A stretch of 64,000 nucleotides of DNA from an uncultured Pseudomonadales bacterium (GCA_964511175.1 CAZEEI010000002.1:132382-196381), one strand, 5' to 3'. Numbered from the stretch's first letter, positions 16,194-33,954 are shown. Translations and numbers: made by a program. Notes: generated from the sequence alone by a model not told the origin.

Positions 16194-16218
16194 AACAAGT
16201 TACTACAAAAAGCTAGAT

Positions 16219-18048
16219 TTATTTGCTTTGACGTGGAGTCAAAATTACCGTATTTCCAATTTGTTTATCAAAATCATAATTAGCCAAAATCCAATCGTTT
16301 ATAGCTGCTAAACGCTTGGTATTAGGAATTAAATCGATTTCATTAGTCCATAAAGCTGATGAATAAATAATGTACTTTGGTCGATGGGCGGCAAGGTCAG
16401 CCAATGCTTCTTGATGAAAGAAATTAGGTTCCGCAAACCAGGTGATATAAAAACGGGTTGGGCTAGGTCGATGTAGTAAATGGTAATAAAGCACTTCGTT
16501 GCTAAAAACAAAAACAAAGTCGGTTTCCTTAGTATTCCCAACAATATAATCTCGAACCAGTTTAGTTTCTGCAGTCAGCCAATAATCATCAGCAATAGTT
16601 GGTAAAGAAAAGAAAATTTTAATATCGTGCCAAGAAGTTGGCCGCCAAGGTAAAATCTGTTCGTATCTAAAGAAAGGAAGAGAGAAAAGCAGTAGACATA
16701 TTCCGATCAGTAATGGTCGAAACAGAATGCGCGTCCGCTGCCAGAAAAAATCACAGAACACAAATACCGCCATAAAAGTAAAAGGAACAGCATACTGGAC
16801 ATGTCCAAAATCACTTCTACCTAAGGCACTTTTGTAAAATAATAAACCCAGAACAACGACGACTGATTGAAGCATAGTTTCGCGTAAGTTCTTTTTATTC
16901 AATTTTCGGAATAATTCAATTGTTACAATCACATTAATGATTATGAGCAAAATAGGTAGCCAGTATAGAGAAAAGGTGGCAAGTGACGGTTTGGGATAAA
17001 CATAGTCAAACATCAGGGGGCTCATTTGGGGTATGTAGAAAAAAGTGATTTTTAAAAATTCAACAAAACCCTGCCAACTAAAAATAACTATTCCCAATAA
17101 TAAAGCACTTCCCGCACCAAGGATGTTGGGATTCAGCAAAGCCAAAGCCTGTTTGAAAAGGAAAATCGGTTTGAAGTTTTTTTTATGATTTAACCAGGTA
17201 GTAGACAAGATATACGCAGTCAGAAAGTAACCATGGGTTAAAATTAAATATATTCCCCGATCAATGGAATGGTAAAGCGACAAAACGCTTACCAATGAAG
17301 TGAGCGTAAATAAAGTTTTTTCGGAAAGTTTATTACGGACAAAGAAAATTATCAGCAGCAAATAAGAAAGTACAAATAAATCTCGTTGCACATCACGCAA
17401 AGGAAGTGAGCCCATGAAAAATACAGCTATTAATCCAAAAATAAAATTGTTCTTAATTAATAAATTAAGAACAAGCAATAATAAACTAAACGCTACTATG
17501 CCAATTAAATAATCAAGGAGAAAAAATGAGCCAATGTTTGGGGAAAATATCTTAAAGGCAAAGAAGGAGGTAAGGGCATCATTTAGAGCTCCGTGTAAAA
17601 AGAAAATATTAGTAAATGGTTTTTGTCCAAAAAAATACATGGCTGATCCCGGACTTACTCGTTCACCTATATGAAACATGTCGATTTGCGAGTAGTTTCG
17701 TAAATAATCGGAACAAAAAGACAAAAAGAGTGAAAGAAGAAGGGCACTAGTTGTATAAACACGCACCGCCAAAGAAAAATGTTTGGCAATAAATGGTTTG
17801 ATAATGTAAAAACCAATTACGCTGCCGATTAAAAATACTAAAAAACGCAGAGTATTAGTGTGAGGATTAAACTGCAAATTAACTACCGGTCCTGCCAAAC
17901 CATAAGGATTGCTAAAAGGCAGACGGACAATCATTGATATGATCATCGCGGCGGAGGTGCTAAACAGTAGAGCTATTCCATTGATTGCTAGTGCCGCTGC
18001 GGGCTGGGAGATAAAAGATAACTGATTAAGCAGCCTGGACGTTCGCAT
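16219..18048 (-). CDS. large polytopic membrane protein (609 aa), glycan polymerase or transferase candidate
   Basis: More than 12 TM segments followed by a C-terminal soluble domain. AT-rich codon usage. Confidence 0.6.
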   Translation of the reverse strand: MRTSRLLNQLSFISQPAAALAINGIALLFSTSAAMIISMIVRLPFSNPYGLAGPVVNLQFNPHTNTLRFLVFLIGSVIGFYIIKPFIAKHFSLAVRVYTTSALLLSLFLSFCSDYLRNYSQIDMFHIGERVSPGSAMYFFGQKPFTNIFFLHGALNDALTSFFAFKIFSPNIGSFFLLDYLIGIVAFSLLLLVLNLLIKNNFIFGLIAVFFMGSLPLRDVQRDLFVLSYLLLIIFFVRNKLSEKTLFTLTSLVSVLSLYHSIDRGIYLILTHGYFLTAYILSTTWLNHKKNFKPIFLFKQALALLNPNILGAGSALLLGIVIFSWQGFVEFLKITFFYIPQMSPLMFDYVYPKPSLATFSLYWLPILLIIINVIVTIELFRKLNKKNLRETMLQSVVVVLGLLFYKSALGRSDFGHVQYAVPFTFMAVFVFCDFFWQRTRILFRPLLIGICLLLFSLPFFRYEQILPWRPTSWHDIKIFFSLPTIADDYWLTAETKLVRDYIVGNTKETDFVFVFSNEVLYYHLLHRPSPTRFYITWFAEPNFFHQEALADLAAHRPKYIIYSSALWTNEIDLIPNTKRLAAINDWILANYDFDKQIGNTVILTPRQSK

Positions 18049-18069
18049 GCGACTGTATTATAGTGGCCT

Positions 18070-19179
18070 ATGATGAAATCAACAACGGCTGAGGCAGTAG
18101 TGATTGGCGGAGGATTTTATGGCTGTGAAATTGCTTTACTGCTACGTCGGTATTTTAAAAATGTTTTGATTTTAGAGGAAAATTCGCAACTTTGTCAGCG
18201 GGCTACTTATATTAACCAAGCGCGCATCCATAATGGTTACCATTATCCGCGTAGTTTTTTAACTGCTTTCCGCTCCCATCATAATTTCAATAAGTTTATA
18301 CAGGACTATAAATTTTGTATTGACGATTCTTTTCAAAAAATTTATGGCATTGCCCGTCATGGTTCAAAAGTGACGGCCAAGCAATTCGAGCAATTTATTA
18401 CTCGCGTTGGCGCACCACTGTCCTCAGTGAGTCCGCAAGTAGAGAGTTTATTTAATCAAGACCTAATCGAAAAATTGTATTTGACGCAGGAAGTAGCTTT
18501 TGATGCCTATAAATTAAAGGAAATGGTAGCATCAAAATTGACTAAAGCGGGGGTTAAAATTTATCATAATGTAACGGCGGCACAAGTAAAAAGCAGAAAA
18601 GACGGATTGGAGATTATAACTACCGCCGGTGAAAGATTTAAGGCGAAGCAGGTTTTTAATTGTACTTATGCCCGTATTAATACCATCCTGAAAAATTCTG
18701 GACTATCTCTTCTTCCTTTTAAGCACGAATTGATTGAGATGGCTTTAATTGAGCCGCCAGCAGAAATACGAAATTTGGGAATTACCATTATGGATGGCCC
18801 GTTTTTTTCAACGATGCCTTTTCCTAGTCAGAAATTGCATTCTCTTAGTCATGTTCGTTACACACCAATTACCGCTTGGTCTGATAAAGAAAACTACCTT
18901 GATCCTTATCAATACTTAACTGCTTTTTCGCGACGTAGCCGATATCAATATATGCTCAAAGACGCAATACGTTATTTACCAGTTTTGAGTAAGGCCCATT
19001 ATGTTAAATCACTTTTTGAAATTAAAACCGTTCTGTTACAAAATGAAGATGATGATGGCCGACCAATCCTTTTCCGGAAAGATTATGATGGTCTCGAAAA
19101 TTTCTATTTGGTTATGGGTGGGAAAATAGATAATATATATGATATTTTAGGGAAAATTACTTCCCTTTTTACGGATTAA
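18070..19179 (+). CDS. FAD-dependent oxidoreductase
   Basis: N-terminal dinucleotide-binding motif VVIGGGFYGCEIALLL. Confidence 0.7.
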   Translation: MMKSTTAEAVVIGGGFYGCEIALLLRRYFKNVLILEENSQLCQRATYINQARIHNGYHYPRSFLTAFRSHHNFNKFIQDYKFCIDDSFQKIYGIARHGSKVTAKQFEQFITRVGAPLSSVSPQVESLFNQDLIEKLYLTQEVAFDAYKLKEMVASKLTKAGVKIYHNVTAAQVKSRKDGLEIITTAGERFKAKQVFNCTYARINTILKNSGLSLLPFKHELIEMALIEPPAEIRNLGITIMDGPFFSTMPFPSQKLHSLSHVRYTPITAWSDKENYLDPYQYLTAFSRRSRYQYMLKDAIRYLPVLSKAHYVKSLFEIKTVLLQNEDDDGRPILFRKDYDGLENFYLVMGGKIDNIYDILGKITSLFTD

Positions 19180-19984
19180 AGACACCAGTAGCGGCTTTAA
19201 ATAGGGTAATAAGCAAATCAAAATTTCCTTTTAAGATACCTATTTTGGTGGGAACTTTACCCCGCGGGTAACGGCGTGTTACTGGAATTTCAATTACTCT
19301 TCGGCCGATTTGTCCGGCACGAGCGGAAAGATAAACCAATAGTTCATACTTTTGAAAGACCCGCCGCAGTGGCAATACTTGCTGATCCAACAAATAAGCA
19401 CGACTGTAGGCGCGGAATCCGTTGGTAGTGTCCGTAAGATGACTACCAGAGACTAAGCTAATAAGCGGAGCATGAAAATAATGATTGGCGATATGGCGCA
19501 ACCAGGGTGTGTTAATGGCTTTTCCACCTGGTATGAAGCGGGATCCTTGTATGTAATCGTAGCCATCTTTTAGCTTAGTAATGAATAAGGGAATACTGCG
19601 AGCGTCATCTTTACCATTACCGTCCATGGTGATGATTCCTTGATATCCTTGTTGTAAGGCGTACGCATAACCCATGCGCAGTTGAGCACTCAGTTTGCCC
19701 GTATCTTTTTTAATTAATAAACTTCTAACCCCATTACGTTTTAGGAAAGCAAGATCAGTTGAACCATCGGTGCTGTCGCCATCTAAGATTAAAATATCAA
19801 CCCGATCTTGGTAATTTTTAATTTGTTGAAGTTGTTTTTTAAAACGGTCTCCCTCATTAATAATCGGAATACATAAACAATAATCATTAGATTTCGGTTT
19901 CAATTCCTGCAATACATGTTTAGGCACATCCCAATTTCGAAGCATATCTTTAGCTAGGTGTTGGGGATTATTTTGTCGAACCAT
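19169..19984 (-). CDS. glycosyltransferase family 2 (polyprenol-phosphate sugar synthase-like)
   Basis: CIPIINEGDRF...ILDGDSTDGS...DGNGKDD, a GT-A signature. Confidence 0.75.
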   Translation of the reverse strand: MVRQNNPQHLAKDMLRNWDVPKHVLQELKPKSNDYCLCIPIINEGDRFKKQLQQIKNYQDRVDILILDGDSTDGSTDLAFLKRNGVRSLLIKKDTGKLSAQLRMGYAYALQQGYQGIITMDGNGKDDARSIPLFITKLKDGYDYIQGSRFIPGGKAINTPWLRHIANHYFHAPLISLVSGSHLTDTTNGFRAYSRAYLLDQQVLPLRRVFQKYELLVYLSARAGQIGRRVIEIPVTRRYPRGKVPTKIGILKGNFDLLITLFKAATGVFNP

Positions 19985-20792
19985 AATGATGAGCTACAAA
20001 AGCTAAAGCTTGTTTTATGGCGTCATTGTTGGCAGGCAAAATGCCGGCTTTCATTTCAATAGACACGGTATGTTGGTAATGATTTTTTTGTAATTCTTGT
20101 GCAATAAGCGTGTGCTGAGTTTGCGGATTGGAACCAATGAGGCCTAAGTAAGGTTCACTAATATGAAAATGTTGTAAATAAGGTTTAGCGATCAGAAAAG
20201 ATTGCGGGATATCTTCTTGATTTAAGGTCATAACAGCTGCATCAAGGTGTAACTGGACGTTAGGATGAGCGAGCGACTGGATGAAATCAACAGTTTCTTG
20301 AGTGTTTGTGAGGAAATTACACCCATATTGAGGAGCATTGGGTTCCAAACAAAACAAAATATTATGCGGTCGACACAGTTCCCCCACTTGCCAAAAAAAA
20401 TCTTTAGCTATCGCGTTAACTGCCTGATCAAAATGTGGGGGAATATGCCTATTTTGAGGAGAGCCGAAAACTAAACGCATCGTACCAAGTTCAGCCGCCA
20501 AAAGGATAATCTTATGCAAATATTTTAAAGTTTTCTTTTGTCCGCTGAGTTCAGTAAATATTTGCAGTTCTGGTTGGCCGTATAAGAGCGATTGCATTGC
20601 CACTGGCGTAAGGCCAAAATTTTGCAAATTTTGTTTATAGGTACGGGCAGCTGCGGCTGAAGCCATGGTGAGATCGGAAAATACTCTGGTTGGAGCGAGT
20701 TCAATATAAGCAATATTGCTTTTCTGCAAAAGGGCAAAAATAACCTTATCTTCGGTTTGATTCCAAGCAATATGAGAGATGGCACACTTCAT
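19968..20792 (-). CDS. sugar phosphate isomerase/epimerase (xylose-isomerase-like TIM barrel)
   Basis: Size and motif distribution (conserved E/H/D in ...LEPN..., ...HLD...) resemble AP-endonuclease-2 / TIM-barrel sugar isomerases. Confidence 0.6.
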   Translation of the reverse strand: MKCAISHIAWNQTEDKVIFALLQKSNIAYIELAPTRVFSDLTMASAAAARTYKQNLQNFGLTPVAMQSLLYGQPELQIFTELSGQKKTLKYLHKIILLAAELGTMRLVFGSPQNRHIPPHFDQAVNAIAKDFFWQVGELCRPHNILFCLEPNAPQYGCNFLTNTQETVDFIQSLAHPNVQLHLDAAVMTLNQEDIPQSFLIAKPYLQHFHISEPYLGLIGSNPQTQHTLIAQELQKNHYQHTVSIEMKAGILPANNDAIKQALAFVAHHYGSTK

Positions 20793-21616
20793 GATGGTTG
20801 AGTAGTAATAAACTTAATTAACTCAGGAAAAATGGTATTCTGATCATAAATATAATGCTGCCGGTTGCCCAAAATCGGGGCGTAGCGAGAATACACATTA
20901 TATTTGACCGGCCGTATTTCTGCATCCGCTTGTAAAACAAGTTGTTTGGCTGCCAAAGCAACCTTTTGCGCCGTAATTGGTTCGGTGGCTAAGTTTACTA
21001 ATTTGAGATTGAGAGGAATAATTTTATTAATATCACTCCACAAATGTTCGATGTTGTAGAACTGGAATTCACTATCCGGATGGGTTCGGTCTAAGAGCTG
21101 ATTGTGTATCAAATCAAAAATAAAATTCTTTTTTAATCCCGGCCCAAAAAGAGCTGGCAGACGAATGATTGTATGTTTGGGAAAATGGTCAGCCACAAAT
21201 TTTTCCAACAATAGTCGATGTTTCCCGTAAGGTTGCTGTTCACTTTCTTTAATTGGTGTTTTTTCATCTACCCGTTGGGGGTGAGGATAAACATCGACGG
21301 TGGAAATGAGAATGAATTCCCGGGCGGCCACTGTTCTTAAATTATCTATAAGCGCGTTAATGGTACGCCAATCTTCCGCTGGTTCTTGATTAGCTCGCCA
21401 TTTAGCGGCGGGAGCACCCGCGCAAACTAGACAATCATAAGCCTGATGACACATATCGCCGCTGTTTTTAGAATTGTATAAATCGTCAAAATGAGTTTGA
21501 CGTGCCAGGTTGCCGCCTACAAAACCGGTGTATCCAATGAGCGCTGTTTTCACAATATTTTTTTCTAGTCGTTGGCTAACTGTAGTGTATACTAAGAACC
21601 CAAATGAAGAAAACAC
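20789..21616 (-). CDS. NAD(P)-dependent epimerase/reductase (short SDR-like)
   Basis: Rossmann motif ALIGYTGFVGGNL near the N-terminus; ATGA overlap with the downstream gene. Confidence 0.6.
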   Translation of the reverse strand: MFSSFGFLVYTTVSQRLEKNIVKTALIGYTGFVGGNLARQTHFDDLYNSKNSGDMCHQAYDCLVCAGAPAAKWRANQEPAEDWRTINALIDNLRTVAAREFILISTVDVYPHPQRVDEKTPIKESEQQPYGKHRLLLEKFVADHFPKHTIIRLPALFGPGLKKNFIFDLIHNQLLDRTHPDSEFQFYNIEHLWSDINKIIPLNLKLVNLATEPITAQKVALAAKQLVLQADAEIRPVKYNVYSRYAPILGNRQHYIYDQNTIFPELIKFITTQPS

Positions 21617-22584
21617 TAATTCCTAGTAACACGCTTATTTCAGTGGTAGTTATTGCGGAAAATGTAGAGTCAATCATTTCTTCATATTTGCAGAAACTTG
21701 ATACTATTTTAAAAAATTATCCTGACGCAGAGATTGTTGTTGTGGACAACGCTTCATTTGACGGCACGGTAGTGCAGGTAAAAAAAATATTATCAAAAAT
21801 ATCACAGCTACGTCTTTTGGTTCTTTCTAAACCCTACAGTGCAGAAACAGCCTTGACTGCCGGATTAGATAATTGCATTGGTGATTACGTAATTGTTTGT
21901 AATCCAATTACCGATCGGCCCAATCTTGTTACAAAACTTTTGCCGTTTTTGCTTAAAGGGCAAGATGTTATTTTTTTGCGATTTACCCATTACGATTTCT
22001 TAGCGGGAGATAGAATTGTACGTTGGCTATCAGCAGTATTAGGACATGCTTATCATCGTAATATTTATTCTCATATTAATTATTCATTGGCTTTAAGCAG
22101 AAAAGCGGTTAATGCTTTGACTAAGGTACGTCGTAAGAAAAGATACTATAACTACATTAGTGAAGCCATTGGTTTTCAGGCTATTACCGTGACTTACGAA
22201 CCATTACACCGCCATCAACATTTATTAACTAAAGAAACGGTGTTTTCTTTAGTTATTCGCCTATTTGACGCTAGTATCAGCCACTCAGTTAAACCACTGC
22301 GCCTAGCTTCTTTAGTGGGTATAACGGCCAGTTTTTTGAATATTAGTTTTTTGTTATACGTTTTTGTCGTGAGCGTGGTCAAACAGAATATTGTGGAGGG
22401 GTGGGTTACTACCAGTGTTATGATGGGTACGATGTTTTTTATTCTTTTCCTCATTTTGACTATTATTTCCGAGTATTTGTTGCGTATTTTAGAGGAGAGC
22501 CGCCAGGAACCATTATATTTTGTAGCTGAAGAAATTGATAACTCCATTTTTTCGGTCAATCGACAGCATCTTAATGTAGTGTGA
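21604..22584 (+). CDS. glycosyltransferase family 2 with C-terminal TM pair (GtrB/DPM1-like)
   Basis: ISVVVIAENVE...VVVDNASFDGT, a GT-A signature, followed by two C-terminal TM helices. Confidence 0.8.
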   Translation: MKKTLIPSNTLISVVVIAENVESIISSYLQKLDTILKNYPDAEIVVVDNASFDGTVVQVKKILSKISQLRLLVLSKPYSAETALTAGLDNCIGDYVIVCNPITDRPNLVTKLLPFLLKGQDVIFLRFTHYDFLAGDRIVRWLSAVLGHAYHRNIYSHINYSLALSRKAVNALTKVRRKKRYYNYISEAIGFQAITVTYEPLHRHQHLLTKETVFSLVIRLFDASISHSVKPLRLASLVGITASFLNISFLLYVFVVSVVKQNIVEGWVTTSVMMGTMFFILFLILTIISEYLLRILEESRQEPLYFVAEEIDNSIFSVNRQHLNVV

Positions 22585-23918: not shown

Positions 23919-23923
23919 GGGTC

Positions 23924-24820: not shown

Positions 24821-27800
24821 AAGCGAATACTTAGATCTTCTTTTTCCAAAGTTAGGTTTTCATTGTAGTAAGGATCATGTTTGAGTGCCGTACCCCACCG
24901 TTTTTGCAGTTTAGTAACCTCTTTCTTCAGAAGAGAGTCATCACGTTGGCGAGTTTCCGGCCGACCAACCGAAACTGATTCATGGTGATAGAGTACGGCA
25001 AAGGGGGTATAGACATGACGCAATCCTTGCTGACTGAGACGTAAACACAAATCGACATCATTAAAAGCAACCCGGAAGAGGGGATCCATGCCATTAACGG
25101 CGAAATACTTCTTCTTTTCGATCATTAAGCAGGCAGCGGTAACCGCCGACCAATTCCGAATCACATCTTTATTGTTAAAAATGGGCAATTTTCCAGGTTC
25201 ACTGGCGGGAAAAAGTTTTTGTGAATGACCGGCCATACCAGCGATGCCTAAAATAATTCCGCCATGTTGCAATAAACCATTGGGATAAAGCAACTTAGCT
25301 CCTACAGCGCCGATTTCCGGCAGTTGGGCATACTCTAAAAGCGCTTCCAACCAGCGTGGCTCGACTACTTCGGTATCGTTATTGAGGAAAAGAAGAAAAT
25401 CACCTTGGCTTTTTTGGGCGGCATAATTATTAATATCCGAATAATTAAACGGTTTTTGATAATTGAGCACGGTTATGTTTTTTCTTTTTTGAATTCGATC
25501 AAAATAAGCTAATGCTTCCAGTTCGGTACTTTGGTTGTTTACCACGATTATTTCGTAGTTTGGATAATGCGTTTTTTGAGTAATGCTATCGATACATCTT
25601 TTCAAATAATCAGCGCCATCTTTGGTAGGGATAATAATGGAAACTAGAGGTTGTTTGATAATCGTTGGTTGAACGTAAAATAAATCAGGACGAATACCTG
25701 GCAGGAGCTTACCCCTCAGATGACGTCGCTTCATGGCATCCAGCAGCGCCCTCTCGGTACTACTTTGCGCGTAACTCTTGGCGGTGTATACCGTTGCGGT
25801 TGAACCAACAATCTTGCGCCAGTGGTAGAGAACCATGGGAATATGCTGAATATTTTTAGTTTTTTCCGTAAACCGCAGCACAAAATCATAGTCCTGAGAA
25901 CCTTCATAACCAACCCGGAAGCCGCCGATCTTTTTAGCCAAAGCAGTGCGATATACGCCTAAATGGCAGGTGTACATGCTGGAAAGAAAATATTCCGGTG
26001 ACCAATCCGGTTTAAAGAAGACATCGCAGCGCCGGCCCTGCTCATCCAGCTTATCTTCATCGCTGTAAATCATATCAGCTTCAGGGTATTTATTTAGCCA
26101 GACAACCACTGCCGCTAAGGCATGGGGGGCAAGTTCGTCATCATGATCAAGTAAAGCGATGTATTCACCAGTAGCTTGTTGGAGAGCCAGCTGCGTGGCA
26201 GCTGATATCCCTTGATTTTTTTGGTTAAAAGTTACTTGAATATTTTGCTGGTGAAGAGAATGGAGGTAATCAAGAGTACTGGCTTGGGTTGAACCATCAT
26301 CCACAATACAAATTTCCCAGTTATCATAAAGTTGGTTTTTTACCGACTCAATGGATTTATCCAGCCAGCGAATATCAGAATTATAGGTTGGCAATAAAAT
26401 GCTAATTTTGGGACGATACTCTAATTTTTTTAACTGTGATGTTACTAAGGATAGATGTTGTGGTTCATTTTTTTGAATCCACTGCTGGTATTGATAGTTG
26501 TACCAGGCAACTTGATCACCAACGATTCTATTTTCCTGAATTTTCCGGTAAAGACCGGCGGGGCCTTGCTGAATTAGGATCTTAATTACTTTGCGCCCCT
26601 TGTTTACCGCGTTCAGTTTGGTCAGCGCTGACAAAATTGAAAAAGAAACATCTTCGGGGGCAGTTGCCAATGTAAAACCTTGGCCAAATAAAGAAAGTTG
26701 GGGGTTATAGAAAGGATCATTATCAATTAATTTGCCCCAGGTTTCGCGCATATAAAGGATTTCATGCAAATCAATCTTACGGCCAGTTTCCTCGACCTTG
26801 CCAACGCTGATTGATTCATGATGAGTTAAAACTACGTGCGGATCATAGACAATTTGGAAGCCGTGTTGACGTAAACGTAAACAAAAATCGATATCGCTAA
26901 ATAAGACTTTCAAGTCCTCTTCTTGAAAGCCACCAACCTTCTGGTAAAGCGATTTTTTAGTTAAAAAACAAGCTCCCGTTACCGCCGACCAGTTTCTGGT
27001 TAAATCTTTAAAGAAAAAACGGGGATTTTCTTTAATTGCGCTATCAGGCATACCTTTAAAGGGGTGACCAGCCACACCAAGATCGTTGGGATTATTTTTC
27101 ATTCCCAAGAGTACACCGGCATGTTGCAAAGTACCGTTAGGGTAAAGGAGCTTGGGAGCCACGCCGCCAATATCGGCACGCTGCATGTATCCTACTAAAG
27201 GACTGAGCCAATCTTTGGTTATTGGCTCGATATCATTATTTAAGAGCAAAATATATTCACCCCGAGCGTGTTCTACGGCAAAGTTAAAAATTCGGGAGAT
27301 ATTAAAGGGTTGAGTGAAATCTAGGATGGTTATTTGCGGATATTTAGCCAACTCAGCAAAATAAGCCAAAGTTTCCGGTTGTTCACTATTATTGTTAACA
27401 ATGAGAATCTCAAAGTTTTGGTATGGTTGGTTTAGCACGCCATCGATACTTTTACGCAGTAAATCAACGTGATCTTTAGTTGGCACAATAACCGAAACAA
27501 GTCTTGATGTTTTAGTTTGATAACGGAGTGTTAAAGAATTGGCAGATGGCTCTTCTGTAACGTTGACCGTCCAACCACGCCGCTGGAGAGAGATTTCTAA
27601 TGAAGATTTATTGGTGCGATTGGCTTTTTTAATTCGCAATGGCAAAAATTCGCTAAACAGTATTACCGGAAGATGAGCAAAACGGGTGGGATATTCGGAT
27701 AATTTTAAAAGGTATTCGTACAAAAAGGCTTGATTTTTAGAAAAGAAGCCATGCTTGCGGAAAATCTTGGTATTCAAAAAAATAAAATTACCTAAATAGT

Positions 27801-28602
27801 TATTGGCTAAAAAAAGATCTAGAGAAAAATCGGGTTTAAACAGCGGATCATGATGCTGAAAATGGGAATTGATTGTATCTTCATCAAAATATAACACATC
27901 GGTCTGCTCGTGTTCACCTAAATATCTTTGTACTTCTTGTAAGGTTATTGGGAACAAGGCCAATGGGAAAAGTATAAGGCCGACAAATGATCGTTTCTTA
28001 TTTTTTAGTAACCGATTAATAATTTCCGGTATGTCCAGTGAGCTTTTAGCTGAATGCAAAGAAATTTGTAAATTTCTTTTGGTATATTGACGCAGCCTGG
28101 GCCATATCTTAGCTTTAGAGTGAACCACTAAACATAATTCCCAGTAAGGATAGCTTTGTTGTTCTAAAGTAGACAGTGATTGTCTCACTTGTGTCCAATC
28201 AGCATTTTGGTCAATAACACCGATCAACAAAAGGGGGGATGCTAAAGGAGAGATGGCTGACGGCAAAATCCTCTGGGGTGAATTATCTTCCAACCAACGC
28301 TGGTACACATCAGTAGTGAGGAAATGTTTTTGTCCGAAGATTGCTTTTTTAATTAAAATCTTTAACTGAGCCCAAATTTGCCAAACACGAAAAGTTTTAG
28401 CACGTTTAATGCCATCTAAAATATAAGAAAGGTTATTGCTATGCTGACGCCAGATCATTAGTTCGTGCTGTAGGGCATCATTGTCTTTTTTAAGTAATCG
28501 ATTATCGTGTTTCAGTTCACGTATAACAGGGGATAATGCATTGCGTTTAGTGGGCTTGAAAGATTTTGAGAGCATATGACAAATAATTAATAAGGAACTC
28601 AC
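24817..28602 (-). CDS. multidomain glycosyltransferase (three tandem GT2 domains, N-terminal coiled coil), 1261 aa
   Basis: Three GT-A openings (VSVIVPTKDH..., ISILLPTYNSD..., VSIIIPTKDGAD...), each followed by a DXD motif. ATGA overlap with the rmlD-like gene. Confidence 0.85.
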   Translation of the reverse strand: MSSLLIICHMLSKSFKPTKRNALSPVIRELKHDNRLLKKDNDALQHELMIWRQHSNNLSYILDGIKRAKTFRVWQIWAQLKILIKKAIFGQKHFLTTDVYQRWLEDNSPQRILPSAISPLASPLLLIGVIDQNADWTQVRQSLSTLEQQSYPYWELCLVVHSKAKIWPRLRQYTKRNLQISLHSAKSSLDIPEIINRLLKNKKRSFVGLILFPLALFPITLQEVQRYLGEHEQTDVLYFDEDTINSHFQHHDPLFKPDFSLDLFLANNYLGNFIFLNTKIFRKHGFFSKNQAFLYEYLLKLSEYPTRFAHLPVILFSEFLPLRIKKANRTNKSSLEISLQRRGWTVNVTEEPSANSLTLRYQTKTSRLVSVIVPTKDHVDLLRKSIDGVLNQPYQNFEILIVNNNSEQPETLAYFAELAKYPQITILDFTQPFNISRIFNFAVEHARGEYILLLNNDIEPITKDWLSPLVGYMQRADIGGVAPKLLYPNGTLQHAGVLLGMKNNPNDLGVAGHPFKGMPDSAIKENPRFFFKDLTRNWSAVTGACFLTKKSLYQKVGGFQEEDLKVLFSDIDFCLRLRQHGFQIVYDPHVVLTHHESISVGKVEETGRKIDLHEILYMRETWGKLIDNDPFYNPQLSLFGQGFTLATAPEDVSFSILSALTKLNAVNKGRKVIKILIQQGPAGLYRKIQENRIVGDQVAWYNYQYQQWIQKNEPQHLSLVTSQLKKLEYRPKISILLPTYNSDIRWLDKSIESVKNQLYDNWEICIVDDGSTQASTLDYLHSLHQQNIQVTFNQKNQGISAATQLALQQATGEYIALLDHDDELAPHALAAVVVWLNKYPEADMIYSDEDKLDEQGRRCDVFFKPDWSPEYFLSSMYTCHLGVYRTALAKKIGGFRVGYEGSQDYDFVLRFTEKTKNIQHIPMVLYHWRKIVGSTATVYTAKSYAQSSTERALLDAMKRRHLRGKLLPGIRPDLFYVQPTIIKQPLVSIIIPTKDGADYLKRCIDSITQKTHYPNYEIIVVNNQSTELEALAYFDRIQKRKNITVLNYQKPFNYSDINNYAAQKSQGDFLLFLNNDTEVVEPRWLEALLEYAQLPEIGAVGAKLLYPNGLLQHGGIILGIAGMAGHSQKLFPASEPGKLPIFNNKDVIRNWSAVTAACLMIEKKKYFAVNGMDPLFRVAFNDVDLCLRLSQQGLRHVYTPFAVLYHHESVSVGRPETRQRDDSLLKKEVTKLQKRWGTALKHDPYYNENLTLEKEDLSIRL

Positions 28603-28671: not shown

Positions 28672-29544
28672 TTGGATGATTATCGATATCCTATATCAGA
28701 TATGTTTGGATTTCACAAAGGCATGGGCCTGCAAGATTATGCTCAATTTCTTTATGAGGTAATTAAGCGGAACACTGAAACTCCCAAACAGTTAGCTATA
28801 GTACAACAGAAATTAGTTGACCTTGACGATAAAATTAATCACAATGCAATACTTTTTAACCAGCTTATTCAAATTGTTCAAAAAATTGAGACTATCTCAA
28901 CAGAATTAACTCAAAAAAGTTGTGTTGAAGATTTTTCTTTTTATCAACATATCTTTTCCTCTAAACTGATTATTTTTGAGAAAAAAATTTCACCCAAGAT
29001 TTTTAACAATATAAATAAGACTATTTTGTGGCTTGGTAATAAATCGATGATCCCAACAGGATTAAAACAACGATCGCGACTTTCCCTAATCAATTTAACT
29101 GAATTACCATCCGCACTTTTTGATCTTAATCAACGGCATATTTCTTATGATATAGTTGTCGTTTCTAATATTCTTCTTACCAATCTTTTATTAACGCATT
29201 CATCCTTATTTATTGTCATGGGAAGGATTACTAAATTAACTTGGATATTAGCCCTACCCGAAGAAAATGAGCTTGATTACCTGGCTAGTTTTTTAACCAA
29301 GCAGATAGATGATACCGAAAGTACGAGTCAAAATATTGCCAAATTACACGCAGCCGGATTTTTTGAGATAGAAGCTATATTTAATGATGGCTCTCGTAAT
29401 ATTACTAGATATGCTCGCGAAAAAGGGTTTTATAATTACCTCTCTTTTCCTACTGAAAAGGTAAATTTATCTGAAAAACGTACGGCTCAGTTTTTAATAG
29501 CCAGAAAAATTCCTAAGTATACAGATTTTGATGAAAAACTATGA
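28672..29544 (+). CDS. hypothetical protein (290 aa)
   Basis: ORF in a very AT-rich block with no recognised motif. Translationally coupled to the next gene (ATGA overlap). Confidence 0.5.
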   Translation: MDDYRYPISDMFGFHKGMGLQDYAQFLYEVIKRNTETPKQLAIVQQKLVDLDDKINHNAILFNQLIQIVQKIETISTELTQKSCVEDFSFYQHIFSSKLIIFEKKISPKIFNNINKTILWLGNKSMIPTGLKQRSRLSLINLTELPSALFDLNQRHISYDIVVVSNILLTNLLLTHSSLFIVMGRITKLTWILALPEENELDYLASFLTKQIDDTESTSQNIAKLHAAGFFEIEAIFNDGSRNITRYAREKGFYNYLSFPTEKVNLSEKRTAQFLIARKIPKYTDFDEKL

Positions 29545-30500
29545 GTGAAAGATTGCCACAACATTGTTTTTTATTATATGGTTATGGTTCCGAATATGTG
29601 CTTCATCCATTGTTTGAGTATATTGTTGACCATCCAGAGCTTGGCGAAGTTATAGAGATTGATGCTCTTCAAGAAAAAGAGTACCTTAGCAAAATAGAAT
29701 TGTTAAAAGGAAAAAAATCGATTATTTTTATTACCTCTGCTCATTTTCTTGAAGATCAACATCTTTTTAATTTTTTAACCAGTTCTCAAGATAGTAAGAT
29801 TATTTCACCTTTAGAAATAATGTCATTCTTACGATCCCAAAAAAATATTTTTGTTGCCCATGATCTGACTATGCCCATATTAACAGAGGAAGAAAATTAT
29901 TTGATGCTTTTTGATTATATTGTCATACCGTACCCACATCAAAAATCAGTAGCTGGTAATCCAGTTTTTATATCAGATGTTGGTTGGATTAAATATGCAG
30001 CCAATTTAAAGTCAACAACTAAGGAAAAAGGAACAATTTTCTTTTTATCTGATTTTCAAATGTATAGAAATTATGGGTTTGAAAGCATGTATAAAAGATT
30101 TAAATTTCTTTTTGATCATGGGATACCAATCAAACTTCCGGTATATATTGATACAAGAATTTTTGAACAAAAATTGCGTGACAGGGGTGTTAAGGTTATT
30201 CCGGCGATTAAAGACTCTGTAAAAGAAATAATTAAACACAAACACATTATTGTTAACGGCATGTCTTCCGTAATTACCGAGGCGGCACTTTTAGGTAAAC
30301 AAGTAACGGTGATTCAGGAGGAATTTTATCCACCCTATTTATATCAAGAGTTATTTGATCGCTTTCCCAATTTACATAAAGTAAGAGAAAGTCACGAGAT
30401 AAAGTTATCTGCTACTAACCCAACTGGAACCAATACGGTGTTGGTACCTTTCCAGCCAAAGAAATTTATCAGTAAAATCCTTGATTTAGAAAAAGAATAA
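29541..30500 (+). CDS. putative CDP-alcohol/polyol-phosphate transferase (TagB/TagF-like GT-B)
   Basis: The C-terminal block IIVNGMSSVITEAALLGKQVTVI resembles the TagF DYSSV...KP motif. The gene context fits (cytidylyltransferase, HAD, ABC exporter). Confidence 0.45.
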   Translation: MSERLPQHCFLLYGYGSEYVLHPLFEYIVDHPELGEVIEIDALQEKEYLSKIELLKGKKSIIFITSAHFLEDQHLFNFLTSSQDSKIISPLEIMSFLRSQKNIFVAHDLTMPILTEEENYLMLFDYIVIPYPHQKSVAGNPVFISDVGWIKYAANLKSTTKEKGTIFFLSDFQMYRNYGFESMYKRFKFLFDHGIPIKLPVYIDTRIFEQKLRDRGVKVIPAIKDSVKEIIKHKHIIVNGMSSVITEAALLGKQVTVIQEEFYPPYLYQELFDRFPNLHKVRESHEIKLSATNPTGTNTVLVPFQPKKFISKILDLEKE

Positions 30501-30501
30501 G

Positions 30502-31092
30502 ATGAAATATCTTTTTGATCTCGATGGTACGGTAACTAATCAAGAAATTTTACCCTTGATAGCCCGTGATCTTGGTTTGGAAAATGAAATGGCGGAGTTG
30601 ACGAGAAAAACTATGCAAGGTGAAATACCTTTTGAACATAGTTTTCGTATACGTGTAGAAATGTTGGCGCGTGTTCCTATAAATAGAGTACAAGAAATTG
30701 TATCGAGGGTATCTATTAGTAAGCCAATTCTAAATTTTTTGACCAACCATGTTGAGACAAGCGCCATTGTTACCGGCAATCTTGACATTTGGATTCAGCC
30801 ACTAAGGGAAAAAATTCCAGTTTGTTTTTATACTTCCAAAGCCAAATATGAGGGTAATACTTTGCTGGGTATCAAATCAATTCTCAACAAAGGTCTCATT
30901 GGCAAGCAGTATGATTTAGAAGAAGTGGTTGTTGCTGTGGGAGACGGCAACAATGATTTGGAAATGTTGGAGAATGCCGCTATTGCGATAGCCTATGGAG
31001 GTGTACATACGCCAGCGGAAGCACTTTTATCGATAGCAGATTATGCTATTTATCAGGATGAAAAATTATGTCAATTTCTAACACAGTTGTAA
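30502..31092 (+). CDS. HAD-superfamily phosphatase (HAD-IB / SerB-like)
   Basis: Motif I DLDGTVT, a Thr/Ser motif II, and motif IV GDGNNDLEM. Confidence 0.75.
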   Translation: MKYLFDLDGTVTNQEILPLIARDLGLENEMAELTRKTMQGEIPFEHSFRIRVEMLARVPINRVQEIVSRVSISKPILNFLTNHVETSAIVTGNLDIWIQPLREKIPVCFYTSKAKYEGNTLLGIKSILNKGLIGKQYDLEEVVVAVGDGNNDLEMLENAAIAIAYGGVHTPAEALLSIADYAIYQDEKLCQFLTQL

Positions 31093-31730
31093 TAAATACG
31101 GCCGGCGTGGGAAGTCGTTTAGGATTTGGCTATCCCAAATCCCTGTTGGAGATAGGTGGAAAACCCCTAATTGTTCACCATTTAAATAATTTAATGGATT
31201 GTGATGATGTTAGGATAGTGGTTGGTTTTCAAGCTCAAAAGATAATCGACATTGTTTTACCAATCAGGCCAGACGCTATTTTTGTTTTTAATCACCAATA
31301 TCAGGAAACAAATACCCTACATAGTTTAGCGTTGGGTTCTAAATTTGCCTCCCAATATGTTATTTCATTGGATGGGGACTTATTAATTAGGCCCAAGGAT
31401 ATTAGAAAAGTTATTCAATATCCCGGTGAGGTGGTTTGTTATACACCAAGCCACACCCAAGAGCCTGTTTTTGCTAAAATTGAAAAAAAGAAAAATCAGG
31501 ATATGATAACTGCCTTTACCCGTCGCAAGGTTTTACCCAATGAGTGGACCGGCGTGGTTAAAATTCATTCTAAGAAGTTGGGACAGAATTACGGTAAGGA
31601 GCATGTTTATCAAGCTTTGAAAAAATATTTACCAATAAACGCGTTCCCCATTTCTTGTGTTGAAATTGATACACCGCAAGATTATGAGAATGCGTTACGT
31701 TGGGCAGCAGAAAAATTGGGGGTAGTATGA
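31068..31730 (+). CDS. sugar/alcohol-phosphate nucleotidyl(cytidylyl)transferase (LicC/IspD-like)
   Basis: N-terminal NTP-transferase signature VINTAGVGSRLG...PKSLLEIGGKPLI. Confidence 0.75.
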   Translation: MSISNTVVINTAGVGSRLGFGYPKSLLEIGGKPLIVHHLNNLMDCDDVRIVVGFQAQKIIDIVLPIRPDAIFVFNHQYQETNTLHSLALGSKFASQYVISLDGDLLIRPKDIRKVIQYPGEVVCYTPSHTQEPVFAKIEKKKNQDMITAFTRRKVLPNEWTGVVKIHSKKLGQNYGKEHVYQALKKYLPINAFPISCVEIDTPQDYENALRWAAEKLGVV

Positions 31731-32368
31731 CAACATTCTCACGTGACGATATAGATAAATTTTGGCGAAAACAAACAACAGTCAAAGATCCGCGTGTAGC
31801 GACTCATTTTAAAAAAGACGATGCCCATCTTTTTGATATCACTTTGGTTAGAAACTATATCAAACCAAATTCGCGCGTTCTAGATTTGGGTTGTGGCACT
31901 TGTGTTATTGCTAATGAAATTTCGGCAGAAGTTGCAAAAATAGTTGCGGTGGATAAATATAATGAATTTTTGTCCTATTGTCGAACCAGTAATAAAATAG
32001 TACCAATAGAAGCGGATTTGCTTAGTTACGATCCGGGGAAAAACAATTTTGATCTAATTTTATTTTTTGGCATAATGAATTATTTTAGTGATCAAGATGT
32101 AAAGGGTATGTATGCACGGGCTTCTCAAGCTTTAAAAAAGGATGGTGTTTTAATAGTGAAGCATGCTAGCGGTATTAATGGTGACGTAGAAGTTGATAAG
32201 TATTCTAAACAGATAGGGGATGTTTACCGCGCCATATACAGAGGAATTGACCACGACAAATCGCTTTTGCAACAGTTCTTTTCTCAAATTACTATTGAGG
32301 ATATTTACCCACCAAGATTGAATCGATGGGATAACACTCATTACTACGCGTATATTTGCAAAAAATAA
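31727..32368 (+). CDS. class I SAM-dependent methyltransferase
   Basis: Motif I VLDLGCGTCVIA. ATGA overlap with the upstream gene. Confidence 0.75.
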   Translation: MTTFSRDDIDKFWRKQTTVKDPRVATHFKKDDAHLFDITLVRNYIKPNSRVLDLGCGTCVIANEISAEVAKIVAVDKYNEFLSYCRTSNKIVPIEADLLSYDPGKNNFDLILFFGIMNYFSDQDVKGMYARASQALKKDGVLIVKHASGINGDVEVDKYSKQIGDVYRAIYRGIDHDKSLLQQFFSQITIEDIYPPRLNRWDNTHYYAYICKK

Positions 32369-32369
32369 C

Positions 32370-33170
32370 TTAACTATTTTGTCGGTAAACGTTAATTATT
32401 TCTTTAGGCTCACCAAGAGATATTATCTTGCCAGCTTTAATATATACTCCGCGATCACAGAATTCCTCAACAATATTTAAAGCATGCGTTACCAGCACGA
32501 TACTGACGCCTTTTTTTTGAAATGAACGGATTCGCCGTAAACACTTATCTTGGAAACTAATATCTCCCACCGCCAAAATTTCGTCTACGAGGAGAATTTC
32601 CGGATTAGTATGTACGGCAACGGCAAAGGCGAGGCGCAAATACATGCCTGACGAATAATGTTTAATCGGCTGGTCAATAAACTCGTGCAGTTCAGCAAAA
32701 TCAACGATCGAATCAAACTGAGTCTCGATTTCCCGACGCTTTAATCCTAAGATTACGCCATTCAAAAAGACATTCTCCCTACCCGTCAGTTCGGGATGAA
32801 AACCGGCGCCTAGTTCGATCAGGGGGGCAATGCGACCATTTACCGTAATTTTGCCTTCGGTGGGTCGACTGACGCCCGCAATCAACTTAAGCAGGGTGGA
32901 TTTACCGCTGCCGTTGGGTCCAATAACACCAATGGTTTCGCCGCGCTTGACCTCTAAATTCACGTCGCGTAGAGCCCAAAAGGTACTGGCGGTGCTTTTT
33001 CCGGCTATTAGAGCTGGTAAAAACTCCTTAAACGTTTTTTGTTCCTGCTTGTAAAACAATTTACCCACGCCTTGAAGACTGATGGCCGGGGTTGAATTGG
33101 AAGCAGGAGAAGAAAGCTTAAACGACATCCGCAAATACCCCTTCCATTTTTTTGAATAACCAATCGGCAA
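32370..33170 (-). CDS. polysaccharide/teichoic-acid export ABC transporter ATP-binding protein (Wzt/TagH/KpsT type)
   Basis: Walker A GPNGSGKST, LSGGM signature, Walker B LLVDE. Confidence 0.85.
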   Translation of the reverse strand: MPIGYSKKWKGYLRMSFKLSSPASNSTPAISLQGVGKLFYKQEQKTFKEFLPALIAGKSTASTFWALRDVNLEVKRGETIGVIGPNGSGKSTLLKLIAGVSRPTEGKITVNGRIAPLIELGAGFHPELTGRENVFLNGVILGLKRREIETQFDSIVDFAELHEFIDQPIKHYSSGMYLRLAFAVAVHTNPEILLVDEILAVGDISFQDKCLRRIRSFQKKGVSIVLVTHALNIVEEFCDRGVYIKAGKIISLGEPKEIINVYRQNS

Positions 33171-33891
33171 CCAGCCAAAGCAGTAGGGATAAAACCGAAG
33201 CTATGGCTAAACTAGCCAGATTGGGGTTACCGCCAGCCAGTAAAACTTGACGATAAGCATTAATTAAAACGGCCATCGGATTTAGTTGAAAAATCCAGCG
33301 GTATTGGTCGGGGAATAGTTCAACCGGATAAATAACCGGCGTAAGATACATCCAAACAATTAGGCCTAAGTTAAGCAAATACTGAATATCGCGGTAAAAA
33401 AGATTAAAGGCTGCTATTAATAAGCTTAGGCCATACATAAAAATACACTGAATTAGAAAAATCGGCACAAACCATAAAATTGACCAACCAACCGGCAGGC
33501 GGAAAAAGATCATAAACGCCACAAAAACTGTGGAAGCCAGGAAGAAATCCACAATCTTAGCCAAGATAGTGCTAATGACAAACGTTTCGCGCGGAAAATA
33601 GATTTTAGTAATTAAGCCAGCGTTGCCAACCAACACGTTGGCTGAACTCGTTAAGGCGCCGGTGAGCAGTGTCCAGGGCAACATACCGGCGTAAAGGAAA
33701 ATCGGGTAGGGCACGCCCAAATCGGGAATGCGTAAAATCTTGGAGAAGACAAAGGCCATGACCAGCATTTGGAAAAAAGGGTTCAAGATAACCCAGGCGT
33801 AACCAAGTAAAGATTGCTTGTAGCGCTGTTTAATTTCCCGCTTAGTCAACTCGGTTAGTAACTCACGATATTGAAAGAAAGCGGTGAGCAT
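33118..33891 (-). CDS. ABC-2 type polysaccharide export permease (Wzm/TagG type)
   Basis: Six TM helices and an N-terminal ...REIKQRYKQSLLGYAWVILNP... ABC-2 motif. Confidence 0.8.
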   Translation of the reverse strand: MLTAFFQYRELLTELTKREIKQRYKQSLLGYAWVILNPFFQMLVMAFVFSKILRIPDLGVPYPIFLYAGMLPWTLLTGALTSSANVLVGNAGLITKIYFPRETFVISTILAKIVDFFLASTVFVAFMIFFRLPVGWSILWFVPIFLIQCIFMYGLSLLIAAFNLFYRDIQYLLNLGLIVWMYLTPVIYPVELFPDQYRWIFQLNPMAVLINAYRQVLLAGGNPNLASLAIASVLSLLLWLVADWLFKKMEGVFADVV

Positions 33892-33954
33892 GGAGCCATT
33901 GTAGCACCGCCCTGCGATTGTCAGAACAGGCGACGACGGTTATTCTGGTGTAGT

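Follow-up and report, generated by a model that had tools for sequence, protein, structure and literature searches.

The window analysed here is a stretch of 64,000 nucleotides that carries a glycan locus with a pronounced low-GC block. To the left of this block stands a Wzx-like MOP flippase (14053..15342, + strand; Pfam Polysacc_synt and Polysacc_synt_3), a conserved anchor at baseline GC (48%) with 46% identity to the gene adjoining wzm in L004, the closest related genome. The transition zone at the left edge is occupied by a 284-aa protein of unassigned function (15339..16193, − strand; 42.6% GC), which has no Pfam or NCBIfam match and no homologue among the related loci. The right anchor is an ABC exporter pair consisting of a Wzm-like ABC-2 permease (33118..33891, − strand; PF01061, 1.5e-22) and a 266-aa Wzt/TagH-like ABC ATPase (32370..33170, − strand; PF00005, 1.4e-24; 44% GC). 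The best NCBIfam matches of this pair are TagH, galactan Wzt and Wzm, all below the equivalog cut-offs. Wzm retains 57–77% identity across more than 25 metagenome loci, and Wzt 54–68% identity to its relatives. Positional identity and GC3 show that the last ~55 codons of wzt are divergent and low in GC. The Wzt of the window has no C-terminal carbohydrate-binding extension, while the Wzt of L004 is 417 aa long and contains about 150 additional residues. Beyond the exporter follow a GT2 gene in divergent orientation to wzm (33871..34743, + strand; 49.7% GC), with a 48–50% identical homologue upstream of wzm in L080 and L081, and a tRNA-Val(CAC) located 1.3 kb past wzm (35237..35311, − strand; ARAGORN and Rfam).

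Between this wzm-wzt pair on one side and the Wzx-like flippase on the other, the locus is a mosaic in which four or more modules can be told apart. Module A comprises an SDR, an isomerase, a glycosyltransferase and a large membrane protein, with a FAD oxidoreductase inserted among them. The SDR is a short epimerase/reductase-like protein of 275 aa (20789..21616, − strand; Pfam Epimerase) with 37% identity to a partial gene at the start of L154, a contig of 30% GC that carries the same module. The sugar isomerase/epimerase is a xylose-isomerase-like TIM barrel (19968..20792, − strand; Pfam AP_endonuc_2) with weak NCBIfam matches to keto-sugar epimerases and 31% identity to L154. The GT2 (19169..19984, − strand; Pfam, with NCBIfam matches below the cut-offs) resembles polyprenyl-phosphate sugar synthases of the AglJ, PpgS and ArnC type and is 61% identical to its L154 homologue. 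The membrane protein of 609 aa (16219..18048, − strand) has ~11 TM segments by hydropathy, and its C-terminal ~150 aa form a soluble domain. It has no Pfam match and is a near-orphan, for which a word search of 5.8 billion proteins returned a single homologue at 45% identity; in L154, this homologue comes after the same isomerase and GT2 genes. We consider it a candidate extracytoplasmic (GT-C-like) glycosyltransferase or polymer-processing protein. The DAO-family FAD-dependent oxidoreductase (18070..19179, + strand; Pfam) has its best NCBIfam resemblance, a weak one, to type 2 glycerol-3-phosphate oxidase and is missing from the otherwise equivalent module of L154.

Module B pairs a second polyprenyl-phosphate-type GT2, with full-length resemblance to PgfS/ArnC-type glycosyltransferases (21604..22584, + strand), with an NDP-hexose C-methyltransferase of the TylCIII/mycarose type (22581..23918, + strand; Pfam Methyltransf_13 and Methyltransf_14, E=1e-62). 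As the called product of the latter has 431 aa, the true start probably lies ~14 codons downstream. Its best homologues are 73% identical and are found in unrelated glycan contexts on contigs of 34–36% GC. Module C is formed by an RmlD-like NDP-4-keto-6-deoxyhexose reductase (23924..24820, − strand; Pfam RmlD_sub_bind, 1e-42), which scores 136 bits against TIGR01214 and thus below the cut-off of 224, together with a protein of 1261 aa containing three Glycos_transf_2 stretches in Pfam (24817..28602, − strand). This triple-GT2 protein has 41% identity to multi-GT2 proteins in the L004 and L091 cassettes and is a candidate chain-building polymerase of an ABC-transporter-dependent pathway.

Module D consists of five genes on the + strand and recurs in L084 (30–57% identity, 30–35% GC, beside a backbone of 44% GC) and in L152, a contig of 33% GC. 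It opens with a 290-aa protein of unassigned function (28672..29544) that has the lowest GC of the block (31.7%) and no Pfam or NCBIfam match; L084 and L152 contain a similar-sized gene at the equivalent position, and that of L084 shows no detectable similarity to it. It is followed by a 319-aa protein from a small uncharacterised family with a GT-B fold (29541..30500), a HAD-IB (SerB-like) phosphatase (30502..31092; Pfam HAD; TIGR01488 with 66.5 bits, above the cut-off of 45), an NTP_transf_3/IspD-type nucleotidyltransferase, probably a cytidylyltransferase (31068..31730), and a class I SAM-dependent methyltransferase (31700..32368). Identities to L084 and L152 are 57% and 51% for the phosphatase, 50% and 48% for the nucleotidyltransferase, and 46% and 45% for the methyltransferase.

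The 319-aa protein had been labelled TagF-like in the first-pass annotation, a label that is justified only at the level of the fold. Its two-Rossmann GT-B architecture is similar to TagF/TarL, and the best structural neighbour is UDP-GlcNAc 2-epimerase. Membership in the TagF family is rejected by the Pfam and NCBIfam tests. PF04464 (Glyphos_transf) gives no match to the protein even at E<=5, and it is absent from the Pfam families listed for the 68 members of the 319-aa family, for which weak matches to UPF0180 (13 members), Glyco_tran_28_C (6) and Epimerase_2 (6) are found. Within the family, H107 is invariant and H68 nearly so. We suggest that the protein is a candidate transferase that uses a CMP/CDP-activated donor. 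The nucleotidyltransferase gene adjoining it is only circumstantial evidence for a CDP-polyol donor.

The sharp drop in GC that had first been noticed by eye is real. In a two-breakpoint likelihood scan of the whole window, positions 16000–32600 are the best single low-GC segment with 38.1% GC compared to 46.5% outside, where the baseline is the rest of the 64-kb window and not a whole-genome value. The log-likelihood gain over a homogeneous model is 176. In 1-kb windows, mean GC is 0.382 ± 0.032 inside the segment and 0.464 ± 0.025 elsewhere. The originally proposed interval of 16200–33900 contains 38.6% GC, with 46.5% in the remaining window. The contrast of about 27% around 29.2 kb and 47% around 5.0 kb describes an extreme point rather than the block: 60-nt lines at ~29.2 kb have 20–40% GC and average ~32% (1-kb value 31.9%), and those at ~5.0 kb have 42–57%. 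Inside the block, GC is uneven, with sub-blocks of 32%, 36–39% and 40–43%. The left edge is abrupt. The right edge is found at ~32.6 kb within the 3' end of wzt and not at 33.9 kb. The genes wzt and wzm (32370–33891; 43–44% GC, GC3 of 0.44–0.49) had been assigned to the AT-rich block but have baseline GC and belong to the conserved backbone. Apart from this placement and the TagF label, the first gene list stands.

The shift affects all codon positions. In a Mann-Whitney comparison of 14 block genes with the 15 other glycan genes of the window (4.3–11.2 kb, 41–46 kb, wzx and the GT2 at 33.9 kb), GC1 is 0.478 compared to 0.543 (p=4e-4), GC2 is 0.331 compared to 0.415 (p=3e-5) and GC3 is 0.324 compared to 0.470 (p=5e-6). 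The observation that the encoded proteins are rich in Lys, Asn, Ile and Phe is borne out by a K+N+I+F+Y fraction of 0.30 in block genes and 0.21 in the other glycan genes. The dinucleotide distance delta* that separates the block from the backbone amounts to 52.6; for backbone segments of the same size it averages 17 and never exceeds 31. Codon usage differs little by Karlin's measure of bias (distance 0.32 compared to 0.28, p=0.03), a point against the explanation proposed below. The 15 other glycan genes serve as internal control. They average 47.6% GC with GC3 of 0.47, so the low GC of the block is not a general property of the envelope-glycan genes of the window and cannot be put down to their function alone. 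Among them is a 6.8-kb glycan set at baseline GC that is missing between the same neighbours in L004.

The best TyrRS matches are found in Microgenomates-type metagenome-assembled genomes, with 70% identity in L004, and on this basis we assign the host to the Patescibacteria/Microgenomates (CPR), likewise represented by a metagenome-assembled genome. L004 carries HisRS, PRTase, SPase, TyrRS, Wzx, Wzm and Wzt, and past these shared genes its GC drops from 46–50% to 31–36%. The same pattern is seen more widely: in 9 of the 10 listed loci with Wzm at least 69% identical, GC is 4–13 points lower just past wzt. Since L079 lies within L085, this corresponds to 8 of 9 independent loci. In the nine loci with the drop, wzm-wzt is 61–75% identical to that of the window, and the downstream genes are unrelated or very distant. 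Across 11 compared loci with wzm/wzt identities of 55–90%, cassette content is almost non-overlapping; of the ~15 block genes, the 10 related cassettes contain homologues of only 5. Even L089 and L090, with 90% identical wzm, carry different cassettes. The loci compared belong to relatives at the level of genus or family rather than to strains of one species, and exact-protein matches come from the same organism only. Synonymous sites demonstrate that cassette genes are exchanged laterally within the clade: L085 and L089 share a cassette gene with 90% amino acid and 66% third-position identity, whereas the adjacent wzm and wzt show 70–72% and 40–45%, respectively.

We conclude that the AT-rich segment is probably the variable, glycan-specific part of an ABC-transporter-dependent surface polysaccharide locus, assembled as an old or piecemeal mosaic from a low-GC pool of exchanged genes. 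The locus has the composition of a Wzm/Wzt-type system, with adjacent genes for an ABC-2 permease and an ABC ATPase and with the triple-GT2 protein, RmlD-like reductase, C-methyltransferase, SDR and isomerase in the same cluster. The low GC would stem from glycan genes that were shuffled among CPR lineages and had long evolved in AT-rich genomes, and the cassette would have been replaced after the split from the nearest sampled relatives. The nearest homologues of the block proteins, with 30–73% identity, are located on separate contigs of 30–36% GC. As these are the best matches and no donor or near-identical copy is found, transfer into this lineage, with its direction and timing, is inferred rather than observed. 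The proposal of a laterally exchanged, serotype-determining cassette agrees with the variable content beside conserved anchors, while a single or recent acquisition has no evidence in its favour. The gene content suggests that the sugars include a C-methylated 6-deoxyhexose and that a substituent is added from a CMP/CDP-activated form; the polymer itself may resemble a teichoic acid or an O-antigen.

A native origin of the low GC has to be weighed against this mosaic. Weakly expressed, fast-evolving accessory glycan genes could drift to AT, and the cassette would then be vertically inherited and merely highly divergent. Across relatives, the GC of cassette and backbone rise together (r=0.73, slope 0.5), with the cassette 8 points lower on average, and universal AT-biased mutation under relaxed selection would give the same correlation. 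The offset of ~8 points is fairly constant, even for backbones of 33–36% GC, where cassettes reach 28%. Because cassette GC tracks backbone GC in this way, low GC alone cannot prove a foreign donor. The Pelagibacterales pose the same puzzle, with few possible donors of lower GC (PMC11898729). The block proteins are also very divergent from everything known, and the block contains no mobility genes, repeats or identifiable donor. We nevertheless regard a native origin as unlikely. The other glycan genes of the window stay at baseline GC, including the set missing from L004. GC1 and GC2 are shifted as strongly as GC3, which indicates that the proteins themselves have long evolved under AT pressure and that the shift is not a recent drift of synonymous sites. 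Module homologues reside in contigs that are 30–36% GC throughout, the cassettes of relatives are non-homologous and not just diverged, and the discordance between L085 and L089 shows real exchange in the clade.

Another rival is a classical genomic island that entered in one recent step, through a site-specific recombinase acting at the tRNA-Val and possibly from another phylum. In its favour, the tRNA lies only 1.3 kb beyond wzm and turns its 3' end toward the block, and one of the named C-methyltransferase homologues, at 66% identity, comes from a Chlamydiae metagenome-assembled genome. The baseline-GC conserved genes for GT2, Wzm and Wzt, however, separate the tRNA from the low-GC DNA, and the block contains several GC levels and modules with different nearest relatives. 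No integrase or recombinase is detected by Pfam in any ORF of at least 100 aa between 13.4 and 37.5 kb, nor a transposase or relaxase domain between 15 and 37.5 kb, and direct or inverted repeats flanking the block are short and at chance level. The 3' half of the tRNA-Val has no second copy in the window with up to 3 mismatches, which leads us to reject it as an integration scar or att site. This recent-island reading is largely refuted and very improbable, and the lack of an integrase, an att repeat and a near-identical donor argues for an old mosaic. Least credible of all is a chimera from assembly or binning that joined low-GC DNA of another organism into the contig. A metagenome-assembled source and the abrupt left edge would allow it, but a second assembly (31.6-kb Logan contig, SRR8925802) contains both junctions with identical proteins, the right junction lies inside an intact wzt gene, and wzt followed by a low-GC cassette is also found in relatives from independent metagenomes.

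The mosaic resembles enterobacterial O-antigen and capsule loci (Salmonella rfb and E. coli, Wzm/Wzt type included), where variable NDP-sugar, glycosyltransferase and modification genes lie beside conserved ones. GC is well under the genome average with sub-segments that differ in GC, the conserved flanking gene loses GC and diverges increasingly as the cassette is approached (here at the 3' end of wzt), a multi-domain GT is a candidate polymerase and a methyltransferase is a possible chain terminator. Salmonella O-antigen clusters have 28–45% GC in genomes of 51–52% (PMC3715488), and O-chain clusters of Pelagibacterales have 23.8% in genomes of 29.4% (PMC11898729). Unlike the enterobacterial systems, the CPR host presumably has no outer membrane or lipid A, and the product would therefore not be an LPS O-antigen. 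The anchors are wzm-wzt and wzx instead of galF/gnd, Wzt lacks the carbohydrate-binding domain that, in one subtype of Wzm/Wzt systems, reads a chain-terminating modification, and the relatives are more distant than serotypes of one species. A domain scan of 48 ORFs of the window finds neither Glycos_transf_4 nor Bac_transf, the domains of an initiating phosphoglycosyltransferase (WecA/WbaP/TagO type), and no rmlABC genes are seen in the block. An initiating phosphoglycosyltransferase is often encoded elsewhere in the genome, which may be the case here.

Replacement flexible genomic islands and 'glycotype' O-chain clusters of the free-living aquatic Alteromonas, Pelagibacterales and Actinomarinales are similar in having unrelated content at the same chromosomal position between relatives, many glycosyltransferases, GC significantly below the genome average and no mobility genes. 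The concept refers to strains within a single species or population, whereas more distant relatives are compared here. Firmicutes wall teichoic acid loci (TagGH, TagF/TarL, TagD/TarI) share with the window a Wzt whose best NCBIfam resemblance is TagH and a nucleotidyltransferase with IspD/TarI-like matches. The polyprenyl-phosphate-sugar-synthase-like GT2s and the large membrane protein recall extracytoplasmic teichoic acid glycosylation of the CsbB/YfhO type. The NCBIfam matches in this comparison are all below cut-offs, the 319-aa protein differs in having no TagF Pfam match, and no equivalents of TagO, TagA or TagB are identified here.

Beyond this locus, we tentatively propose, at somewhat less than even confidence, that wzm-wzt 'glycotype' replacement islands are general in Microgenomates, and that the portable five-gene module adds a methylated, CMP/CDP-activated substituent of a so far undescribed kind to a polymer resembling teichoic acid. 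The locus follows the known pattern of O-antigen and capsule loci, here in a little-studied phylum. If the proposal is true, it would point to surface-glycan diversification driven by phage or host-cell recognition in ultra-small episymbionts, much as at O-antigen loci.

The drop in GC content that the first-pass annotation reported at 16200-33900 is real, with 38.6% GC for this stretch versus 46.5% for the remainder of the window (44.3% for the window as a whole). A likelihood scan places the best single low-GC segment at 16000-32600, at 38.1% versus 46.5% and with a log-likelihood gain of 176. The GC fraction of 1-kb windows is 0.382 ± 0.032 inside this segment and 0.464 ± 0.025 outside, and the lowest GC, about 32%, is found at 28.7-30.5 kb. 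The earlier contrast of 27% to 47% holds for individual 60-nt lines only (20-40% around 29.2 kb, 42-57% around 5.0 kb) and does not describe the block. The right edge also has to be moved from 33.9 kb to about 32.6 kb, within the 3' end of wzt (32370-33170, minus strand). The ABC exporter had been counted as part of the AT-rich cassette, but both exporter genes, wzt and wzm (33118-33891, minus strand), have 43-44% GC.

The shift affects all codon positions. For 14 block genes compared to the 15 other glycan genes of the window, GC1 is 0.478 versus 0.543 (p = 4e-4), GC2 0.331 versus 0.415 (p = 3e-5) and GC3 0.324 versus 0.470 (p = 5e-6), and the K+N+I+F+Y fraction of the proteins is 0.30 versus 0.21. 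These measures are used in place of the Karlin-type codon-bias distance, which is mildly raised in the block, because this distance is strongly length-dependent and the difference is marginal. In dinucleotide signature, the block lies at a distance of 52.6 from the backbone; backbone segments of equal size average 17 and reach 31 at most. A chimeric contig is an unlikely source of the block, as another assembly from this organism (31.6-kb Logan contig, SRR8925802) contains both block junctions.

Most genes listed for the block in the first-pass annotation are borne out by Pfam and NCBIfam. The block encodes a DAO-type FAD oxidoreductase, two GT2s resembling polyprenyl-phosphate sugar synthases, a xylose-isomerase-like TIM barrel, a short SDR, an NDP-hexose C-methyltransferase (Methyltransf_13/14, 1e-62), an RmlD-like reductase, a 1261-aa protein with three GT2 domains, a HAD-IB phosphatase, an NTP_transf_3/IspD-type nucleotidyltransferase and a SAM methyltransferase; Wzt is an ABC ATPase and Wzm an ABC-2 permease. 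No family is assigned to the 290-aa and 319-aa proteins, nor to the 609-aa membrane protein, which combines about 11 TM segments with a soluble tail. The C-methyltransferase ORF, read from a GTG at 22581 (22581-23918), is probably overlong: the database product has 431 aa and is 100% identical over 97% of the query, so that the real start probably lies about 14 codons downstream. Neither an initiating phosphoglycosyltransferase nor rmlABC genes are seen in the window. An Rfam scan of the whole window returns three tRNAs and nothing else. A promoter and terminator scan is uninformative, with promoter-like sites at shuffled expectation and terminator-like sites below it.

Matches to the TyrRS of the left flank come from Microgenomates-group Patescibacteria MAGs, the best, in locus L004 (contig CAZFLN010000007.1), being 70% identical. 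L004 is syntenic with the left side of the window for HisRS, PRTase, signal peptidase, TyrRS, Wzx, Wzm and Wzt, and its GC falls from 46-50% to 31-36% exactly past the wzt ATPase core. The wzm-wzt-cassette unit has opposite orientations relative to TyrRS-wzx in the two loci, which indicates an inversion or rearrangement in one of the two lineages. Between TyrRS and wzx (14053-15342, plus strand), the window contains ORFs of 118 aa and 198 aa at 13009-13971, the latter with 39.5% GC and no family; neither has a match in L004, where TyrRS directly adjoins wzx. An exact-protein look-up for conspecific strains returned only contigs of the same organism.

With Wzm as query, 80 loci were retrieved from metagenomes. 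Among the ten listed loci with a Wzm at least 69% identical, nine show a GC drop of 4-13 points directly downstream of wzt, corresponding to eight of nine independent loci since L079 is a sub-stretch of L085. In an all-against-all comparison of 11 loci, wzm and wzt are 55-90% identical and the genes downstream of wzt are mostly without homologues in the other loci; the parts of the block that recur are the triple-GT2 gene and four genes of a five-gene module. The transition lies inside the 3' end of wzt (32370-32600): the last ~55 residues of Wzt are 26-39% identical, compared to about 80% for the core, with GC3 down to 0.19-0.37. The Wzt of L004 (13234-14487) is extended at its C-terminus by a low-GC domain of about 150 aa. 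This domain is missing from the Wzt of the window and may be a glycan-specific binding domain co-varying with the cassette.

Within the block, per-gene GC forms sub-blocks of 36-37%, 40-41%, 36-39%, 40-43%, 32% and 36-38%. They coincide with modules, and the nearest homologues of these modules are found in different places. The closest homologues of the C-methyltransferase, at 73%, reside on contigs of 34-36% GC in unrelated glycan clusters, and named homologues come from Roizmanbacteria (70%, 65%), a Chlamydiae MAG (66%) and Microgenomates (61%). The triple-GT2 protein recurs at 41% in L004 and L091. The window (16219-21616) and L154 (2-3820), a contig of 30% GC, have a conserved module in common, which encodes an SDR, a TIM-barrel isomerase, a polyprenyl-P-type GT2 and a ~600-aa membrane protein at 37/31/61/45% identity. 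In the window, the FAD oxidoreductase (18070-19179), missing in L154, is inserted between GT2 and membrane protein on the opposite strand. The five-gene module is found in three otherwise different loci (window 28672-32368, L084 13311-16988, L152 9035-12789) and encodes an unknown protein of about 300 aa, a GT-B enzyme (the 319-aa protein in the window), the HAD-IB phosphatase, the nucleotidyltransferase and the SAM methyltransferase. L084 carries four of its genes (30/57/50/46% identity) at 30-35% GC, adjoining a backbone of 44% GC, and L152 is a contig of 33% GC with quite different neighbours. The 290-aa protein has no similarity to the gene at the same position in L084.

The label 'TagF-like' for the 319-aa protein finds no support in profile searches. 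In the word-index homology search, the 609-aa and the 319-aa protein each matched themselves and one other protein, leaving the former with a single detectable homologue among 5.8 billion proteins. An exhaustive HMMER search of 1.8 billion representatives reaches further and assigns the 319-aa protein to a small family without characterised members, which comprises 182 clusters at 50% identity and has H107, G148 and E247 invariant. Its AF2 model has a pLDDT of 92.8 with a 68-sequence alignment; a model from a 2-sequence alignment (pLDDT 49) was discarded. A profile search against PDB sequences yields nothing beyond a weak match to an 'N-acetyl glucosaminyl transferase' (5fa0, 8csb), which extends over 49 residues (E=0.01). 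This GT-B family of about 180 clusters and the near-orphan 609-aa membrane protein are modestly interesting by-products and candidates for biochemical follow-up.

Two further glycan gene sets are present in the window. PRTase (3771-4361) and signal peptidase (11135-11725) are direct neighbours in L004; in the window they are separated by about 6.8 kb (4321-11172) encoding a 150-aa ORF, a 457-aa multi-TM protein without Pfam match, a GT2, an SDR epimerase, a methyltransferase and two GT4s. Unlike the block, this second indel has baseline GC (45-50%). The other set is a Wzx/Wzy-type locus at 41039-46064 (GT2, Wzx, GT2, GT2, Wzy_C ligase/polymerase-like), also at baseline GC (44-50%). The window thus holds three sets of glycan genes in total, and both routes of export are represented. 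To the right of tRNA-Val (35237-35311, minus strand), the stretch 35365-40994 contains a 726-aa protein without family (41.7% GC), a 139-aa protein (40.5% GC) with a weak match to LPD3, a domain of polyvalent proteins that typically occurs in mobile elements, and a 605-aa protein weakly matching Peptidase_C39_2. A baseline-GC Dus gene interrupts these three genes, which may be left over from a further foreign patch.

We consider it likely that the block is a mosaic drawn from an exchanged gene pool. The cassettes at the conserved position are non-homologous among relatives, module homologues are found in uniformly AT-rich contigs, and the shift of GC1 and GC2 along with GC3 points to long evolution under AT pressure. 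Exchange within the clade is directly visible. The first cassette gene, epimerase-like, is 90% identical in amino acids, 85% in nucleotides and 66% at third positions between L085 (11550-12494) and L089 (4035-4979), while the adjacent wzm and wzt reach 70-72%, 67-68% and 40-45%, a clear case of single-gene lateral exchange or a conversion tract. L089 and L090 share a 90% identical wzm and carry different cassettes. The GC contents of cassette and backbone are correlated across the 11 loci (r=0.73, slope 0.5, offset 8.2 ± 2.8 points), which is compatible with partial amelioration of an AT-rich pool. An AT bias intrinsic to such genes would also fit the correlation, as has been pointed out for Pelagibacterales O-chain clusters (PMC11898729). 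We regard a purely intrinsic explanation as rather improbable. The other glycan genes of the window, including the sets at 4.3-11.2 kb and 41-46 kb, remain at baseline GC, so neither a glycan function nor variability is sufficient by itself to lower GC here.

The proposal of a horizontal cassette is broadly right apart from its boundaries and the exporter, and evidence for a recent one-step transfer is absent. Pfam scans of the block region reveal no integrase or transposase, and direct and inverted repeats over 12.5-36.5 kb amount to short chance-level pairs, without tandem repeats. The same search yielded no candidate for an inversion scar. An att duplication of tRNA-Val was not found, and conserved baseline-GC genes separate the tRNA from the block. 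Even the closest homologues reach no more than 73% identity, and in the word search both the 609-aa and the 319-aa protein come out as near-orphans.

From the gene content, we infer a polymer pathway running from cytoplasmic assembly to export. The triple-GT2 protein and other GTs would assemble a polymer in the cytoplasm on a lipid carrier, from sugars that probably include a C-methylated 6-deoxyhexose; an NDP-4-keto-6-deoxyhexose would be the substrate of the C-methyltransferase, and its 4-keto group would then be reduced by the RmlD-like enzyme. The five-gene module probably synthesises a nucleotide-activated phospho-substituent or cap, which may be methylated, and transfers it. Export of the chain would proceed via Wzm/Wzt; in NCBIfam, Wzt most resembles TagH and galactan Wzt. 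Side-branches may be attached outside the membrane by the two polyprenyl-P-sugar-synthase-like GT2s and the 609-aa membrane protein.

Low-GC hypervariable glycan clusters are textbook knowledge for Enterobacteria and documented for marine free-living bacteria. As in O-antigen clusters (PMC3715488), we find low, heterogeneous GC and conserved flanks, with GC falling and divergence rising towards the specific genes, and the pattern also agrees with that of the 'glycotype' replacement islands described in aquatic bacteria (PMC11898729). The principle of such loci is not new, and the general view of their evolution is unchanged. Among the results of our literature search, no CPR-specific report of such islands was found. 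The same architecture is present here in a CPR/Microgenomates lineage: the exporter genes form a conserved anchor, the AT-rich cassettes are non-homologous, and modules are shuffled. The envelope of these cells is essentially uncharacterised, and they depend on cell-cell contact for their lifestyle. Wzm-wzt and what comes after it provide a concrete locus for the study of CPR surface diversity.
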